A stretch of DNA of 35,026 nucleotides from a virus (lineage: Duplodnaviria; Heunggongvirae; Uroviricota; Caudoviricetes), in IMG/VR virus record IMGVR_UViG_2698536657_000017, positions 1 to 35,026 of that record; one strand, given 5' to 3'. Position numbers and translations under genes: made by a program. This document shows positions 2,691-24,690 of the stretch, piece by piece. Each line of letters begins with the position of its first letter. The stretch's first letter is position 1. The notes beneath the pieces were generated by a model that ran no database searches, was not told the origin of the DNA, and saw only the letters and a list, made by a program, of their open reading frames with translations.

Positions 2691-3585
2691 TCACTGAGCC
2701 CTCATACGCGAATTTCGTGGCTTCCATCAGTTGCGTCCATACCCATTCAAGAAATTGTGCGTTTTCTCCTGAGCGGTCATATTCATCGACGCTGCGGGGC
2801 TTGATGGTCGCCAGTAGTGGCACAATCCGGTACTTCATCTGTTCGGTTAACTTGTCCGGTACAAGTCGCCAGCCGTTATATTTCGATGGAACATGGTGGT
2901 ATTCAGCCAGGAAGCGTCGTATATCGTTTTTCATTTCCTCGCATGAGTTCTGATCATGAAGTGCAGCGGAAAGCCAGCGTCCGATATATTCAGGGATTCG
3001 CACATCAAGTACTTTTTCTGCCGTCGTCAGCATTGCCTGTCGGCAGGCGTTCCAGCCGTTGACATAGTGACGTGTTGCATCCCATGAAACCTGCACATCA
3101 GGGTAAGCATCCTGTTCTGTTCTCACTGGCGGTATCTGAGGAACAGTGAATAGTGGACTGACGATATATTTATCCAGAGAGCCTCCCCGCTCTTCTGCAA
3201 GACTTTCCCACGATGTCATTGTGGGGACCCTGTAACCTGCTTTTTTGTGCGTATACATCCATGCCACTCTGCCGTTATCATCTGCGGCGGCAATGCGCTG
3301 CCAGGCAGGATAAAGCGGGGTGTATGTTTCTCTGTCATTACGGGCGTCAGGCATGGCATCAATACTGCAAACTTCCCCCGTAAGGTTATTCAGCCAGGCC
3401 TTCGGGCTAATCTCTGACGTTACGATTTCATCCAGTTTTTTCTCCAGATTTTCTATGTGACTGATTAGCGCAAGGATAACTGGCGGAGTGGCAAGGGAGT
3501 GAAATGCTTCCAGATCACATCCCTTGTCTCCATATACGGTATTTTGTGCGGCGTCACGCAGTGCTTTCAGATCAGCTTCTTTCAT
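2683..3585 (-). CDS. Hypothetical early protein, Ead/Ea22-like N-terminus (300 aa)
   Basis: Long ORF. Its start overlaps the upstream stop as ATGA. The N-terminus MKEADLKALRDAAQN resembles Ead/Ea22-like lambdoid early proteins from memory only. Confidence 0.6.
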   Translation of the reverse strand: MKEADLKALRDAAQNTVYGDKGCDLEAFHSLATPPVILALISHIENLEKKLDEIVTSEISPKAWLNNLTGEVCSIDAMPDARNDRETYTPLYPAWQRIAAADDNGRVAWMYTHKKAGYRVPTMTSWESLAEERGGSLDKYIVSPLFTVPQIPPVRTEQDAYPDVQVSWDATRHYVNGWNACRQAMLTTAEKVLDVRIPEYIGRWLSAALHDQNSCEEMKNDIRRFLAEYHHVPSKYNGWRLVPDKLTEQMKYRIVPLLATIKPRSVDEYDRSGENAQFLEWVWTQLMEATKFAYEGSVNG

Positions 3586-13425: not shown

Positions 13426-13503
13426 AGCCGGAGATATCCAGTAGACATTTTCCCCCTGAGCATTCAAATCAGAAAAAGTATGGTTACAGCGGAGTACAGA
13501 ATA

Positions 13504-13929
13504 ATGCGTGATATCCAACAGGTTCTGTCCCGATGGGGTGCATGGGTGGTAAATAATCATGAGAGTGTGGCATGGTCCGGCGTCGCTGCCGGATTTAAGG
13601 GAGTGATCCCATCAAAGGTTAAATCACGGCCTCAGTGTACCGATGATGATGCGCTGATTATCAGCAATTGCATGGCGCAACTGAACGTCAACAACAGCGA
13701 TTTGCATGATTTTCTGTATGATTATTATGTGTTCGGGATGACGCTTATGGGACTGGGCCGTAAGCATGAGCGCTCTGATTGCTGGGCCGGGCGGGTACTG
13801 CAAAAAGCTGAAGGTGTTATTGAGGGGATGTTGATTATGCAGGGAATAAAACTGGAAATGGACAGATACGTTGAGCGTGAACGATCAGGGGCACAGGTCA
13901 GTCAGTTTTCCGGACATACGGGAAATTGA
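13504..13929 (+). CDS. Q: Late-gene antiterminator Q, phage 82/21 (QuuD-like) type (141 aa)
   Basis: [60 protein letters not shown] matches my memory of Q82/QuuD-family proteins. I preferred this start over 13480 because GGAG lies upstream of it. Confidence 0.85.
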
Positions 13930-13953
13930 AAGCGCGGGGTTTTACTGTAGAAT
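13926..13953 (+). promoter_or_regulatory. Sigma70 promoter (TTGAAA-16-TAGAAT), most likely the hok mRNA promoter
   Basis: -35 at 13926-13931 (overlapping the Q stop codon) and -10 at 13948-13953. The predicted start at about 13961 coincides with GGTGCTTGAGG, which resembles the conserved 5' end of hok-family mRNAs. Confidence 0.55.
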
Positions 13954-14019: not shown

Positions 14020-14080
14020 GTTAACATTACGCGTCCTGCAAGACGCTTAACATTAATCTGAGGCCAATTTCATGCTGAAC
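14020..14080 (-). ncRNA. sok: Sok-like antisense RNA (boundaries approximate)
   Basis: Minus-strand promoter TTGCCT-17-TAACCT (-35 at 14110-14115, -10 at 14087-14092) points into the hok leader. The transcript would be complementary to the upstream in-frame ATG (14072) region. It contains the hairpin GCGTC-N6-GACGC (14031-14046). Confidence 0.4.
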
Positions 14081-14128
14081 ACATGTAGGTTAGCCTCTTA
14101 CGTGCCGAAAGGCAAGGAGAAGCAGGCT

Positions 14129-14284
14129 ATGAAGCAGCAAAAGGCGATGTTAATCGCCCTGATCGTCATCTGTTTAACCGTCATTCTGACGGTACTGGTA
14201 GCGAGGAAAGACCTCTGCGATGTACGAATCCGAACCGGCCAGACGGAGGTCGCTGTCTTCGTAGACTACGAATCTGAGAAGTAA
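14129..14284 (+). CDS. hok: Hok/Gef-family type I toxin, HokD/RelF-like (51 aa)
   Basis: MKQQKAMLIALIVICLTVILTVLVARKDLCDVRIRTGQTEVAVFVDYESEK is near-identical in pattern to RelF/HokD as I remember it. AAGGAG RBS. The upstream leader resembles the hok mRNA fold-back elements. An in-frame upstream ATG at 14072 occupies the mok position. Confidence 0.9.
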   Translation: MKQQKAMLIALIVICLTVILTVLVARKDLCDVRIRTGQTEVAVFVDYESEK

Positions 14285-14458
14285 GAGACCTGGCGGGGGA
14301 GTAATCTCCCGCCCCCTCTGATGTGTCAGGCATCCTCAACGCACCCGTACTTTAGTTGTCATATGCTCCGCAAAATGCAGGTTGTCGTTGCAACCCGTGC
14401 GGTAATTTTTTGTGTGCGAGTGCTCAAAAAACGTTGATTTTCATAAAAGGACGATTTT

Positions 14459-16543
14459 ATGCTGCCAGACCAGCGACCAGCGACCAGCGACCGTAAATCA
14501 AGAAAGTCTGTAAAATCTGTTGAACCAGACATTGCCGACCGGGCTAACAACTGGCTCAAATCTTATGGACTTGATTACAAACTGGAGCAGGCACCACTTA
14601 ACAACGAGATCGATAACGCACTGGATGCTTATTTTTCGAAAAATGGCGGCACAGGCGGTAATCGTCCCGACGTAAAACTCCTTGTTCAGGACAAATACGG
14701 CAAGCAGTATCCCGTTCTCATCGAGTATAAAGGCTACAAGGACAGGCTTATCAGACTTGGCAGCAACGGTATTATTGAGAACAAAGATGCCAGAAAAGAA
14801 TGGAATTTTAAAAATATTAATGGATACGCGGTGAATGGCGCAGTCCATTATGCCAACGCACTTCTTCAGTTCACCAATTACCCTGATATTATTGCTATTG
14901 GTATGACCGGCTGGCGCGATGATGGTACAGGCGAACTGCATCATGAAATCGGCGTGTGGTACGTATCAAAGAATAATTTAGGAGCCGGGCAGAAGGTTGG
15001 TGAATTCACCGACTTATCGTTCCTTGCTGACAAAAATGTTGATGGATTTCTCAACAAGATAAAGCTGCTTAATCTTCCTCCCGAAGAACTGGAAAAAATC
15101 AAGGCCAGCAAAGAGGAAGAGATAGACACGCGACTTTCCCGTCTGAATAACGATATTTACCAGAATGAAAAGGGGCTTGGTGAAAGCGATCGTGTTTACC
15201 TTGTTGTGGCTACCGTTATTGCAACGTTGGGGATTCCGGGAAAGTTAGCACCGCTGGATAAAAAAGAACTGACCTCTTCAACGGAGGAGGACTTGCGTGA
15301 TGGTGATATTATTTTCAGGAAAATAAGGAATTTTTTAAGGCTGAAAGCTGTTCCTGAAACAAAAAGAGAAATGATTTTGCGCTCGTTGCAAAATACGCTG
15401 TGGACTGAAAACATTAACAAACCAGTCAACGGTGAAAGCCAGTTAAAGCGCGTGTTTGTTAAAGTTGTTGATGATCTTGGGGAGTATTACAAAATCGGAC
15501 TGACCACTGATTTTACGGGCAAACTGTTTAATGAGATGTATCGCTGGCTTGGATTTACGCAGGACAAACTCAATGACGTCGTTCTGACACCACCTTATGT
15601 TGCCACATTGCTGGCACGACTCGCCAGAGTAAACAAAGATTCCTATGTGTGGGATTTTGCTACAGGTTCTGCGGGATTGCTTGTGGCTGCAATGAATGAA
15701 ATGCTCATTGACGCCAGAGAAAATATTCACTCACCGAATGAACTACAACTTAAGGAAGCGCAAATCAAGGCTGAACAGCTTCTTGGCCTTGAGGTGTTAT
15801 CCAGTATTTATATGCTGGCCATCCTGAATATGATTTTGATGGGGGATGGTAGCTCGAATATCCTCAATAAAGACTCGCTAGCCGATTTTGACGGCAAGTA
15901 TGGATTTGGGAAAACAGGAGAAAAATTCCCTGCGGACGCATTTATTCTCAATCCTCCGTATTCAGCTAAAGGTAACGGCATGATTTTCGTGCAGAAGGCG
16001 CTGTCGATGATGGATAAAGGCTATGCTGCAGTGATTATCCAGAGTTCAGCCGGCACAGGAAAGGCTACGGAGTACAACAAAAAAATACTCAAGGAAAATA
16101 CCTTGCTGGCAAGCATCAAAATGCCTGCGGATCTGTTTATTGGTAAATCAAGCGTTCAGACGTACATTTACGTTTTTCAGGTAAAAATTCCGCATAACGC
16201 GAAACAGGCTGTTAAGTTTATCGACTTTTCCAATGACGGCTATGCTCGCTCTAATCGCAAAAAGGCAAGAAACAATCTTGTTGATGCCGATCGTGCAAAA
16301 GAGCGTTATCAGGAGGTTGTGGATCTGGTTCACTTCGGGAAAGGTTGCCTTAATATCTTTACGGAGGATGAATATTTTGAGGGAACAATCGATCCTGATA
16401 GTGGTGAGGACTGGAATCAGACCAGGCCAGTAGATGCTAGGCCAACGCTGGATGATTTCAAAAAGACGGTAGGTGATTACCTTGCATGGGAGGTCTCGCA
16501 ATTACTGAAAAAACAAGGTGAAAACAATTTTGCGGGAAAGTAA
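14459..16543 (+). CDS. Fused PD-ExK nuclease plus gamma-class N6-adenine DNA methyltransferase, BcgI-A-like RM subunit (694 aa)
   Basis: N-terminal D71-X17-E89-x-K91 (NRPDVKLLV...PVLIEYKG, nt 14666-14731). MTase motif I DFATGSAG (15653-15676) precedes motif IV NPPY (15950-15961). AAGGA RBS. It is followed by an HsdS-like gene, and no HsdR-like gene is present. Confidence 0.85.
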   Translation: MLPDQRPATSDRKSRKSVKSVEPDIADRANNWLKSYGLDYKLEQAPLNNEIDNALDAYFSKNGGTGGNRPDVKLLVQDKYGKQYPVLIEYKGYKDRLIRLGSNGIIENKDARKEWNFKNINGYAVNGAVHYANALLQFTNYPDIIAIGMTGWRDDGTGELHHEIGVWYVSKNNLGAGQKVGEFTDLSFLADKNVDGFLNKIKLLNLPPEELEKIKASKEEEIDTRLSRLNNDIYQNEKGLGESDRVYLVVATVIATLGIPGKLAPLDKKELTSSTEEDLRDGDIIFRKIRNFLRLKAVPETKREMILRSLQNTLWTENINKPVNGESQLKRVFVKVVDDLGEYYKIGLTTDFTGKLFNEMYRWLGFTQDKLNDVVLTPPYVATLLARLARVNKDSYVWDFATGSAGLLVAAMNEMLIDARENIHSPNELQLKEAQIKAEQLLGLEVLSSIYMLAILNMILMGDGSSNILNKDSLADFDGKYGFGKTGEKFPADAFILNPPYSAKGNGMIFVQKALSMMDKGYAAVIIQSSAGTGKATEYNKKILKENTLLASIKMPADLFIGKSSVQTYIYVFQVKIPHNAKQAVKFIDFSNDGYARSNRKKARNNLVDADRAKERYQEVVDLVHFGKGCLNIFTEDEYFEGTIDPDSGEDWNQTRPVDARPTLDDFKKTVGDYLAWEVSQLLKKQGENNFAGK
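14468..14492 (+). repeat. Heptanucleotide tandem repeat (GACCAGC) x3.6 inside codons 4-12 of the RM gene
   Basis: Perfect period-7 identity across 14468-14492 (gaccagc gaccagc gaccagc gacc). The unit length is not a multiple of 3. Confidence 0.9.
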
Positions 16544-16602
16544 ATTCCCCGCTCAGCGATAAATTAAGAAGCGTTGAGTGGGGAGAGTTCAGGATTGGCG
16601 AT

Positions 16603-17139
16603 TTGTTCTATGTGAGCACAGGCTCGCTTATCTCCTCAGGAAGATTAAAACCAGGCAAAATTAAACGTGTTTCAGCAAAGAGCGATCAAAACGGTATCAT
16701 CGGAGAGTTTGATACCGAGTTTATGGATGATGCAAGGCATTATGAAAATTTTATAAGCGTTAATTTTTTTGGAGATGCTTTTTATCATCCTTATTGTGCC
16801 AGCGTAGAAATGAAGGTGCATGTTCTTACATTAAAATCAAGTAAGTCCGACTTTAATGCAAAGCGCGGACTGTATGTTGCCAGTATGATTAATAAAGCTT
16901 TAAAGGGGCGTTTTAATTATGGTCAACAGTTATCGAGTTCCAAACTCAGAGATGGAGAATATTTCATCTCATTACCAGTGAAAAATAATGAAATTGACTG
17001 GTTTTTTATGGATAATTATATAGAAGAGCTGGAAGCGGCCCATATAGAAGAGCTGGAAGCTTACTTGCTGGTTAGCGGACTCGCGGACTCGCGGACTCGC
17101 GGACTCGCGGACTCGCGGACTCGCGGACTCGCGGACTGA
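16603..17139 (+). CDS. HsdS-like specificity subunit, N-terminal half (TRD1 plus central helix), terminated inside or after an 8-mer repeat tract
   Basis: The frame is open from 16522. It has the conserved S-subunit N-terminal motif VEWGEFRIGDLF, a TRD-like body, and a coiled-coil FFMDNYIEELEAAHIEELEAYL. It then reads through the repeat as GLADSRTRGLADSRTRGLAD and stops at TGA 17137. The only start codon after the motif region is TTG at 16603. Confidence 0.7.
   Translation: MFYVSTGSLISSGRLKPGKIKRVSAKSDQNGIIGEFDTEFMDDARHYENFISVNFFGDAFYHPYCASVEMKVHVLTLKSSKSDFNAKRGLYVASMINKALKGRFNYGQQLSSSKLRDGEYFISLPVKNNEIDWFFMDNYIEELEAAHIEELEAYLLVSGLADSRTRGLADSRTRGLAD
17018..17060 (+). repeat. In-frame 24-bp tandem duplication (ATATAGAAGAGCTGGAAGC core, x1.8) in the S central helix
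   Basis: Copies at 17018-17036 and 17042-17060 are identical and have a 24-nt period. They encode IEELEAAH/IEELEAYL. Confidence 0.85.
17075..17137 (+). repeat. Octanucleotide tandem repeat (GCGGACTC) x7.9 between the two halves of the S gene
   Basis: There are 7 perfect units at 17075-17130 plus 7 nt of an eighth. The unit length is not a multiple of 3. The flanking ORFs are in different frames (pos mod 3 = 1 upstream, 0 downstream). Confidence 0.97.
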
Positions 17140-17201
17140 TAAGCTATGAGCTTACACCGCAGGAATATAACGCGATTGAGCTATTAAATAGCAATAATCT
17201 T

Positions 17202-17723
17202 ATGTGGGGCACTTATAACCTCAAAAAGTTATTTGGCCCCGCAATAAGAGGTAAGCGTCTGAAAAACGCAGATCGTATTCCCGGATCCTTGCCTTTTGTT
17301 ACTGCGGGTGAAGGCAATGAAGGTATTTCTGCATTTATCAGTAATGATGTTGTTGTATTCCCTGAAAATACCATTACGATAGATATGTTTGGCTCCGCAA
17401 AATACAGAAATTATGAGTATGGTGCAGATGACCATGTGGCAGTTGTTCATACAGAATTCTTTGACAGAAATGCCGTTATTTTCATAACAGCATCAATTCA
17501 TAAGTCTTCTTGTACCGGAAAGTTCAACTACGGGAGAAATTTCTATGCAAAAGATGCCGACGAGTTAATGGTATCTTTGCCGTCAAAAGATAATAACCCT
17601 GATTATTCTTTCATGGAGACGCTAATTTTAGCAGTACATAAACTGGTCATCAAAGATGTTGTCCAGTACACTGATAAAAAGCTGGTAGCGTACAGGCAGA
17701 TTACATCTGAGAAGGTCGTTTAG
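17202..17723 (+). CDS. HsdS-like specificity subunit, C-terminal half (TRD2 plus C-terminal helix)
   Basis: MWGTYNLKKLF parallels WGEFRIGDLF of TRD1. Further parallels are MFGSAKYRNYEYG vs FFGDAFYHPYCAS, and VSLPSKDNNPDYSFMETLI vs ISLPVKNNEIDWFFMDNYI. The frame is open upstream through the repeat tract (...LISYELTPQEYNAIELLNSNNLM). Confidence 0.7.
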   Translation: MWGTYNLKKLFGPAIRGKRLKNADRIPGSLPFVTAGEGNEGISAFISNDVVVFPENTITIDMFGSAKYRNYEYGADDHVAVVHTEFFDRNAVIFITASIHKSSCTGKFNYGRNFYAKDADELMVSLPSKDNNPDYSFMETLILAVHKLVIKDVVQYTDKKLVAYRQITSEKVV

Positions 17724-17845
17724 TGCAAATCCCCACCTGACAGGGTGGGGAATGGTCAGGTTATCGTGCCCTGATGCAGAAAAACAGTTTACAATCGTAA
17801 AAATCATCATATCATGACAAAAGTGGTTACATTGCCACGCAGCCG

Positions 17846-23883: not shown

Positions 23884-24690
23884 ATGGCAAAGCTGGACTG
23901 GAAAAAGCTGGAGCAGGCATTCCGACGCGAACATGCCGAAACGGGAATAACATTACTGGACTGGTGCCGGAAGAAAAAGATTAATTACAACACCGCCAGA
24001 ACCCGTATAAAAATGGGCAAAATCGATCATGAAATTGATCATAAAACCGATCATGAAATCGATCATGACATCTCAGATGAAGAACCCAGCAATGACGCGT
24101 GTTCCGACGATGAAAAATGCGCAAAAAACTCTGAAAAAAACTGCGCAAATTCGGCAGAAACGAAACGGATTCGTGGTTCCCGACTTTTACCTCCTTCAAA
24201 CGCTTTTTCTCAGCGAAACACCCACGCCGTAAGACACCGTGGATATGCGAAGTATCTTGAGGCAGATAACCTCATGGATGATGCGTCCGACATGGTGCTG
24301 TTCGATGAACTGGTGTTCACCCGGGCCCGCGCACTTTCAGTAACTAAGGCACTTAAAGGGATGTTCGCCGACCTGGAAGAGGCAACTGACGTGGAAACCC
24401 GCGTTGCTCTTTACGACAAAATACTCAAAGCTGAACAGGCCCTTGACCGGAATATTGCCCGTATCGAGTCAATTGAACGCTCATTGCTGACGCTGGACGT
24501 CCTGGCTGAGACAGCACCAAAACTTCGTGCTGACCGGGAAAGAATCAACGCCGCCAGAGATAAACTCAGAGCGGAAACCGATATTCTGACCAGCCAGCGC
24601 CGGGGTGTTATTACGCCAGTCAGTGACATCGTGTCATCGCTGCATGAAATGAGTAATTCGGGGAGACTGGATGACATTCCGGAAGAATAA
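23884..24690 (+). CDS. terS: Terminase small subunit (268 aa)
   Basis: N-terminal HTH-like segment (GITLLDWCRKKKINYNTARTRIKMG). It lies immediately upstream of, and overlaps, the large terminase gene. The C-terminal half is coiled-coil. Confidence 0.7.
   Translation: MAKLDWKKLEQAFRREHAETGITLLDWCRKKKINYNTARTRIKMGKIDHEIDHKTDHEIDHDISDEEPSNDACSDDEKCAKNSEKNCANSAETKRIRGSRLLPPSNAFSQRNTHAVRHRGYAKYLEADNLMDDASDMVLFDELVFTRARALSVTKALKGMFADLEEATDVETRVALYDKILKAEQALDRNIARIESIERSLLTLDVLAETAPKLRADRERINAARDKLRAETDILTSQRRGVITPVSDIVSSLHEMSNSGRLDDIPEE
24022..24069 (+). repeat. Four tandem 12-bp units, each containing GATC (ATCGATCATGAA-like)
   Basis: Units at 24022, 24034, 24046 and 24058, with GATC at 24025, 24037, 24049 and 24061 (exact 12-bp phasing). 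They are codon-aligned and encode IDHE-IDHK-TDHE-IDHD. Confidence 0.9.

Follow-up and report, generated by a model that had tools for sequence, protein, structure and literature searches.

A hypervariable heptanucleotide repeat at the start of a BcgI-like restriction-methylase gene in Escherichia coli prophages as a probable frameshift switch

The DNA under study, hereafter called the window, is a 35,026-nt stretch of a virus genome (IMG/VR record IMGVR_UViG_2698536657_000017, Caudoviricetes), and our subject is a short tandem repeat of the unit GACCAGC at the very beginning of its 694-aa open reading frame (ORF) 14459–16543, the gene of a predicted nuclease-methylase of a restriction–modification (RM) system. 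We regard it as highly probable that this repeat makes the locus a frameshift contingency (phase-variation) switch, of which the window holds a minimal allele, in frame and with a single start. Tandem Repeats Finder located GACCAGC x3.6 at positions 14468–14492 with a period of 7 and 100% matches, right behind the start, where it begins at codon 4 and takes in only the first base of codon 12, in agreement with the position and copy number given in the initial annotation (codons 4–12). The 5′-end of the ORF reads ATG CTG CCA GAC CAG CGA CCA GCG ACC AGC GAC CGT AAA, which is translated as M L P D Q R P A T S D R K, and the encoded peptide begins with MLPDQRPATSDRK...; a Shine–Dalgarno (SD) sequence AAGGA is present at 14447–14451, with a spacing of 7 nt to the ATG at 14459. 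Because the longest perfect tract (period 4, 5, 7 or 8) in 300 mononucleotide shuffles of the window had a mean length of 15.5 nt and a maximum of ≤20 nt, the observed perfect tract of 25 nt is beyond chance. The GACCAGC tract is free of stop codons in all three frames, each of which encodes the same DQRPATS repeat, and no in-frame ATG, GTG or TTG separates the tract from the conserved core of the enzyme. The window allele contains 3 full units and is in frame with its start codon, here termed ATG#2, and an ACG at 14451–14453 takes the place of a further start, ATG#1, that most other alleles carry.

Comparison of a 501-nt query around the tract with 5426 complete E. coli genomes showed that it was found whole in 28 of them and in phage PhiR12_3. 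In every full match the query was spread over 592–1170 nt, and the inserted DNA consisted of GACCAGC units only. The comparison covered 22 alleles: besides the window, 17 loci from complete genomes, the phage PhiR12_3, a further complete genome that is more distant, and two contigs of draft or metagenome origin. Their unit numbers were 2, 3, 3 (window), 16, 23, 23, 30, 31, 50, 64, 76, 80, 82, 83, 83, 83, ∼87, 88, ∼92, 93, 99 and 120, with the counts from 16 to 120 coming from long-read complete genomes. Homologous alleles thus carried from 2 to 120 units, rather than the identical 3.6 copies, or a non-repetitive equivalent in their place, that the initial annotation had named as refuting a switch. 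Moreover, isolates with 0 mismatches in 5.4 kb of flanking sequence differed from each other at the tract: the Symbioflor strains G1/2, G6/7 and G8 had ∼92, 83 and 99 units, UCPROB-001 and UCPROB-002 had 76 and 83 units, and three OkiPb isolates had 23, 30 and 23 units. Since flank-identical isolates differ in unit number, the tract mutates far faster than point substitution, and its range of 2–120 units makes it a marker that evolves very fast and can tell apart isolates that are identical elsewhere.

Behind the tract, the core ORF was uninterrupted in all 22 alleles, at 681–682 aa, and this holds also for the 14 alleles whose frame does not match the main start. Comparison of the enzyme core of the window with that of locus L020 gave non-synonymous and synonymous divergences (dN and dS) of 0.069 and 1.46, and dN/dS for the whole gene was ∼0.05. 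For the 30 codons right after the tract dN was 0.11 and dS was 0.46–0.62 (dN/dS ∼0.2), which indicates purifying selection in this region as well. Hence, because there is no in-frame start between the tract and the core and because the post-tract codons are under purifying selection, translation would have to start upstream and cross the tract. The tract separates the only usable start from the conserved core, so that gain or loss of a unit is predicted to shift the frame of the whole enzyme, as had been proposed when the repeat was noticed. The intact core in all alleles, together with the whole-gene dN/dS of ∼0.05, argues for a reversible switch rather than for decay. The leader itself had been thought unlikely to be structurally required, and this is consistent with homologs from Neisseria, Providencia and 70 other species (72 non-E. 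coli homologs, 69–74% identical, from Firmicutes, Bacteroidota, Proteobacteria, Spirochaetes and the candidate phyla radiation), which begin with Met and 5–12 residues before the conserved motif (K/Q)S(I/V)EPxIAD, none of them with a multi-base repeat; the PADLOC Type IIG profile, moreover, aligns only from residue 17. We therefore regard the E. coli tract as a lineage-specific insertion into what appears to be a dispensable leader.

In 19 of the 21 other prophage alleles, ATG#1 is located 8 nt upstream of ATG#2 and in another frame (aaaggATGatttt/atcct/atcttATGctgcca), and a TGA overlapping ATG#1 closes the third frame. Three prophage lineages share this dual ATG, even where nucleotide identity in the body of the RM gene falls to 81%; ATG#1 abuts the SD sequence, and ATG#2 has a well-spaced one. 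In the mechanism that we propose, replication slippage would add or remove 7-nt units, and as the unit length is not divisible by 3, every gain or loss would put the enzyme body in another frame relative to the upstream start. For a tract of n units, the enzyme would be made from the strong, SD-linked ATG#2 when n = 0 mod 3, it would be produced weakly from ATG#1 when n = 1 mod 3, and none would be made when n = 2 mod 3. Among the 22 alleles, 8 are in the ATG#2 frame, 6 in the ATG#1 frame and 8 in the off frame. Most alleles are thus probably three-state switches (strong, weak and off) rather than ON/OFF switches. The initial annotation had read the tract as a simple ON/OFF device; the switch as such is supported, the restriction to two states probably does not suit most alleles, and the window has lost one of the two starts.

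For the window allele itself, the count of 3 units is probably real; its origin in a draft assembly is a chief doubt about our reading. It is unlikely, in our judgement, that the source strain has a long tract and that the 3.6 copies are its collapsed short-read version, in which case the locus would still be a switch and the reading of the window as locked in the ON state would be void. This explanation draws on the fact that the window and an NCBI draft contig (LOGS01000071.1) share 8085 nt at 100% identity, and on the tendency of short-read assemblies to understate the GACCAGC/CAGCGAC repeat, whose lengths in GenBank were always shorter than those from fragment analysis (Atack et al., PMC5909438); short-read viral and metagenome contigs likewise have low counts (3, 5 or 9) or end inside the tract. 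However, a second, independent assembly (AAXXUC010000089.1, locus L022) has the same 3-unit allele with the same private ACG change, and it crosses the heptamer tract although it ends ∼100 nt before the location of an octamer tract that the window carries further downstream. The window contig, moreover, resolves this perfect octamer tract of 63 nt. From the way in which assemblers work, a de Bruijn collapse should not yield a tract shorter than k−1, and 25 nt would need k ≤26, whereas assemblies of long-tract strains typically break at the tract instead.

Such breaks also bear on how the short allele may have arisen. Two contigs that match the RM body of the window except for 1 nt in 2050 have their first base precisely where the tract ends (they have 14 and 10 octamer units), which implies long tracts in isolates near-identical to the window, and many database proteins of the enzyme family are labelled 'partial', with a first residue within the repeat or immediately behind it. 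We favour a recent contraction to a near-locked ON state in the window, and the suggestion in the initial annotation of a contracted remnant or low-rate switch fits, as the window is among the shortest alleles and near-identical contigs break at the tract. The 3 full units of the window equal the minimum of at least 3 units of Atack et al.; as a tract of 3 units should slip orders of magnitude less often than one of 16–120, the enzyme gene would effectively be ON in the window and close to locked, or at most a low-rate switch.

Several points weigh against this interpretation. Three units may be too few for useful switching, and the tract is then perhaps functionally inert in the window. Alleles of 2–3 units occur in all three lineages (those of the other lineages are L109, L110, L113 and L133), and because of these alleles and of a degenerate leader in locus L107, the short state could be ancestral and unexpanded rather than contracted. 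The use of ATG#1 is predicted from the sequence, and its SD spacing is poor. A sigma-70 consensus scan between the upstream hok toxin gene and the RM start gave no match, and no promoter active in the lysogen was found; the RM gene may be expressed only from a late promoter dependent on the antiterminator Q, which would alter the biological meaning of the switch. The locus L107 is a metagenome prophage, whose degenerate and non-repetitive leader (1383–1425; AATCAGCGACCAAC) reads ATG CTG CCA AAT CAG CGA CCA ACA AAT. It has a single start with a strong SD sequence, 14 octamer units in its specificity gene, and, at the end of its RM gene, CCA GTA AAG TAA (3440–3458), a mutated form of the slippery site described below.

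Two further explanations were weighed against the frameshift switch. That the tract is a neutral, hypermutable minisatellite in a decaying prophage gene, with no regulatory role and with frame states that are noise, seems very improbable to us. About two thirds of the alleles are out of frame with the main start, tracts reach 846 nt, far beyond the needs of switching, and annotation pipelines treat many alleles as truncated genes, which speaks for it; but none of the 22 alleles, out-of-frame ones included, has a broken core ORF, dN/dS is ∼0.05, the tract is placed exactly between start and core, the dual-start arrangement is conserved, and the same cassette is present on a second, unrelated RM gene (see below). 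There is equally little chance that the tract acts at the protein level, as a variable, disordered (DQRPATS)n N-terminal tail tuning activity, stability or assembly: all three frames do give the same stop-free heptapeptide repeat, and in-frame alleles of 30, 99 and 120 units would have tails of 70–280 aa, but in 14 of the 22 alleles the frame is not that of the SD-linked start, a leader of 5–12 aa is all that homologs from 72 other species have, and the plasmid mod gene with this repeat was active when expressed without it (Atack et al., PMC5909438).

A second repeat lies in the specificity (S) gene downstream. The ORFs 16603–17139 and 17202–17723 each correspond to one half of a Type II specificity subunit, and both match PADLOC Specificity_II and PHROG 12160. 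In homologs S is full length (about 360–440 aa), whereas in the window it is split by a frameshift at the octamer tract, which lies between its two target recognition domains (TRDs). The octamer unit numbers across loci were 0, 4, 5, 6, 6, 7 (window), 10, 14, 14, 16, 16, 18 and 23. Loci with 6 or 18 octamer units have a full-length S, and the window with its 7 full units has one too many; frame arithmetic shows that a full-length S is restored by losing one unit or by gaining two. OkiPb isolates that are identical elsewhere have 18, 6 and 23 octamer units. By analogy with SSRs (simple sequence repeats) between the TRDs of Type I hsdS genes, we suggest that the octamer probably toggles between full and half S, and hence specificity, rather than acting as a plain OFF switch, and that the state of the window is one in which the enzyme gene is ON and S is truncated. 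The independent variation of the S octamer (0–23 units) supports the proposal of two independent potential switches in one module, one for the enzyme and one for S. The module in the window is also a mosaic: 14493–16494, with the gene body, resembles lineage 1 (99%), 16495–17003 matches lineage 2 only, and 17004–17800, with the centre of S and TRD2, again resembles lineage 1. The middle segment, which holds the 3′-end of the RM gene and TRD1, matches only the octamer-less lineage (L008 type), and this indicates a recombinant S gene with an exchanged TRD1 in the window.

The junction between the two genes suggests a further recoding device. The RM ORF ends with GC G_GGA_AAG TAA (16534–16543 from the first G of the heptamer), in which a −1 slippery heptamer stands in register, and S is read in the −1 frame, which runs through the junction without a stop. 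The N-terminal segment of S encoded there, GKVNSPLSDKLRSVEWGEFRIGDLF, is conserved, canonical starts are absent ahead of the TTG at 16603, and alignment to the PADLOC S profile begins at the second residue past the RM stop. The other E. coli lineage differs in its heptamer, A_AAA_AAG, which is placed one codon ahead of the RM stop. Moreover, an in-register X_XXY_YYZ heptamer is present 0–1 codons before the RM stop in 69 of 74 analysable loci from many phyla (G_GGA_AAA in 45, G_GGA_AAG in 23 and A_AAA_AAA in 1), compared with a background frequency of such heptamers inside these genes of 0.9% per codon. The −1-frame S ORF of these 69 loci has a median length of 376 aa, and 41 of them have no ATG, GTG or TTG before the conserved S motif. 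Hence S is likely made as an RM–S fusion by family-wide programmed −1 frameshifting, beside free RM protein; in the window such a fusion would carry the junction peptide ...FAGKVNSPLSDK, and the S 'gene' would have to be interpreted accordingly. A literature search on this RM–S frameshift found no paper. In strain 2015C-3121 an IS1A is present between the RM and S genes (L003 6442–7139), where it would part S from the frameshift site.

Table 1. Positions of the repeat tracts, starts, genes and candidate signals of the module in the window
Feature	Position	Strand	Basis and remarks
pR′-like late promoter candidate TTGAAA-16-TAGAAT	13926..13953	+	Consensus scan, 10/12 matches; end of Q gene
Translation-initiation leader AAAAAACGTTGATTTTCATAAAAGGACGATTTT	14426..14458	+	Leader alignment, conserved; holds SD AAGGA 14447–14451
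Start codon ATG#2 of nuclease-methylase gene	14459..14461	+	Sole start remaining in window allele
BcgI-alpha-like Type IIB/IIG restriction-methylase gene, 694 aa	14459..16543	+	PADLOC REase_MTase_IIG, Pfam, alignment motifs
GACCAGC x3.6 simple sequence repeat	14468..14492	+	Short in-frame allele of hypervariable tract
G_GGA_AAG −1 slippery heptamer, in register	16534..16540	+	Immediately before RM stop 16541–16543; candidate frameshift site
S gene first half (TRD1), −1 frame relative to RM	16534..17139	+	Pfam Methylase_S; PADLOC Specificity_II; ends just after octamer tract
GCGGACTC x7.9 repeat between the two S TRDs	17075..17137	+	Tandem Repeats Finder; 63 nt, 7 full units
S gene second half (TRD2), out of frame with first half	17202..17723	+	PADLOC Specificity_II; PHROG 12160 positions 180–354

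The family of the enzyme was assigned with PADLOC, Pfam and PHROGs, since a PDB sequence search gave no related solved structure and an NCBIfam search gave sub-threshold hsdM and MAD2 matches only. The PADLOC REase_MTase_IIG profile PDLC03616 matches residues 17–686 (E 7e-234), and a second PADLOC profile of 637 positions matches more weakly (E 7e-45). In Pfam, N6_Mtase was found with E 5e-21, and VRR_NUC at residues 32–98 was weak and below the cut-off. The nuclease motif PD71...E89-x-K91 and the methylase motif NPPY at 498–501 are both present, with D71, E89, K91 and NPPY invariant in an alignment (A1) of 15 homologs. We class the system as BcgI-like, with a predicted A subunit that combines nuclease and methylase and with a separate S subunit, and the annotators of phage PhiR12_3 labelled the RM protein 'BcgI alpha chain-like'.

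The RM module is part of a lambdoid prophage and directly follows the antiterminator gene Q (13480–13929; Pfam Phage_antitermQ, E 2.5e-45) and the hok toxin gene (14072–14284), a location that in Stx phages is the place of the stx genes. The pR′-like candidate at the end of Q is likely the source of transcription into hok and the RM module. A conserved TTGATTTT within the leader, with a possible −10 element TATGCT over the start codon, was considered as a promoter and rejected, as it scored 8/12 and its transcript would begin within the tract. The hok-family gene is intact in the window (70 aa, Pfam HOK_GEF), and it is annotated as frameshifted in several lineage-1 prophages (L001–L004 and L016). 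Elsewhere in the window, imperfect 12-nt tandem arrays are present at 24020–24072 (4.4 copies) and 24113–24149 (3.1 copies), at the start of the ORF 23884–24690 and just upstream of a large terminase-like ORF; their unit is a multiple of 3, so that the frame is kept.

The tract affects how these loci appear in databases. Annotation pipelines call truncated methylases and spurious antisense proteins at it, and short-read contigs break or collapse there. RefSeq, for example, calls the reverse strand of long tracts a 'YXWGXW repeat-containing protein' or hypothetical protein (L002 3658–4338 on the minus strand, L003, L004, L011–L014 and others) and starts the methylase internally. We rejected these reverse-strand ORFs as real genes, because they are artefacts of a repeat that is stop-free on both strands. 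Two alternative starts were rejected as well: an upstream GTG used by PGAP in L001, which sits in the ATG#1 frame without an SD sequence, and a TTG at codon 42 in out-of-frame group-2 alleles, as codons 13–41 are conserved as coding and all homologs start upstream of it.

Carriers of the locus are lambdoid prophages, with the module at the stx-equivalent position, in E. coli that produce Shiga toxin (STEC), atypical enteropathogenic E. coli, commensal and probiotic strains (Symbioflor G1/2, G6/7 and G8). The tract may also coincide with an established MLVA typing locus of O26/O111 STEC. Because nuclease and methylase form one polypeptide, the predicted switch would toggle defence and genome-wide methylation together, and the second repeat could alter the target sequence. 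The locus may therefore be relevant to phage resistance, gene flow and possible epigenetic heterogeneity in these lineages. Phase variation through repeats is considered a rarity in E. coli, and the prophage locus adds a second, different RM system with the same cassette to the one described next.

The closest known relative of the cassette is on plasmids. Eight E. coli plasmids of 93–117 kb match the window over 14426–14492 only, and in them the gene behind ATG CTG CCA (GACCAGC)n encodes a Type III methyltransferase and the gene of a Type III restriction enzyme comes next (MTase_III + REase_III), with tract spans that imply about 11–38 units. Both polymerase chain reaction primers for M.Eco131I of Atack et al. 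match the plasmid locus L019 (NZ_JBXHCO010000002.1; leader and tract at 2323–2450), and we identify the plasmid gene as M.Eco131I, which Atack et al. called the first phase-variable methyltransferase in E. coli and for which fragment analysis gave mixed tract lengths within cultures of three STEC strains (Atack et al. 2018, NAR 46:3532, PMC5909438). The repeat of M.Eco131I, CAGCGAC[n], is a rotation of GACCAGC, it follows the same ATG CTG CCA, and about 33 nt of homologous leader precede it, with 86.6% identity over 14426–14492 between the window and the leader of the plasmid mod gene. In both systems the tract is located right after the start, its copy number varies between strains, and the carrier is an E. 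coli mobile element. However, the plasmid has a Type III Mod and Res, whereas the prophage has a BcgI-like Type IIB enzyme and S, and no relation is seen between the sequences downstream of the tract; a single start is present in the plasmid leader, whereas most prophage alleles have two and prophage tracts reach 120 units; and the second simple sequence repeat (SSR) is absent from the plasmid system. By its sequence the window gene is not a Type III Mod of the M.Eco131I type, and only the cassette is shared, which suggests that a cassette of start plus repeat moved between RM systems.

Pattern scans of viral and metagenome contigs for the cassette on further genes gave only this RM gene or contig ends, save for L129 (12885–12983, an IMG/VR contig end), where the leader and two GACCAGC units are followed by a different sequence, GACCACCGAAAACCG..., with 76 nt to the contig end; L129 may be a third gene context for the cassette. 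More tentatively, and with some doubt on our side, the findings could be joined into one picture: a portable cassette on unrelated E. coli RM genes; three recoding devices on the prophage operon, in which the heptamer and dual starts would set the level, the octamer the specificity and the −1 frameshift the ratio of RM–S to RM; and a window allele locked by contraction and by loss of the second start.

Among known switches, the dual starts resemble lic1A of Haemophilus influenzae, in which CAAT repeats after alternative ATGs give strong, weak and no expression. The likeness lies in two starts in different frames upstream of a non-triplet repeat, with three levels predicted; the differences are that lic1A is a lipopolysaccharide phosphorylcholine gene with a tetranucleotide repeat, and that the second start is absent from the window allele and its use elsewhere is a prediction. 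Cj0031 of Campylobacter jejuni is reportedly a phase-variable Type IIG enzyme; it shares with the prophage enzyme a single chain of nuclease and methylase and a repeat within the gene, by which its expression is switched. Its repeat, however, is a poly-G homopolymer and not a heptamer, the gene is chromosomal, and its specificity domain is fused, so that there is no separate S gene bearing an SSR.

BcgI, a Type IIB RM enzyme, consists of an A subunit with nuclease and methylase and a B subunit for specificity, in A2B stoichiometry. The prophage system shares this domain order and two-gene layout, and RM and S are matched by PADLOC profiles whose 637 and 341 positions correspond to the sizes of BcgIA and BcgIB; the similarity to the 637-position profile is distant (compare the E values above with that of the family's own profile), and the likeness to BcgI is one of sequence. 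We know of no repeats in BcgI, and a literature search found no description of the prophage BcgI-like gene. Both kinds of SSR do occur in Type I systems, with CGAGA[3–10] in hsdM of H. influenzae and ACAGC[10–40] in that of Mannheimia haemolytica, and with SSRs in hsdS between the TRDs (Atack et al. 2020, PMC7383803, in whose main text E. coli is unnamed). In those systems an SSR in the 5′-part of the methylase gene gives ON/OFF states and an SSR between TRDs gives truncated or full S, and the layout of the prophage module is the same. Type I systems differ in having three genes with a separate HsdR, and the two SSRs are not reported together in one operon; in the prophage enzyme nuclease and methylase are one polypeptide, so that a switch would remove restriction and modification together. 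Thus, the mechanism and the repeat cassette are already known from other systems, and what appears to be new in the prophage locus is that the cassette is joined to a Type IIB enzyme and accompanied by another SSR in S, that it has dual starts, and that its tract reaches extreme lengths.

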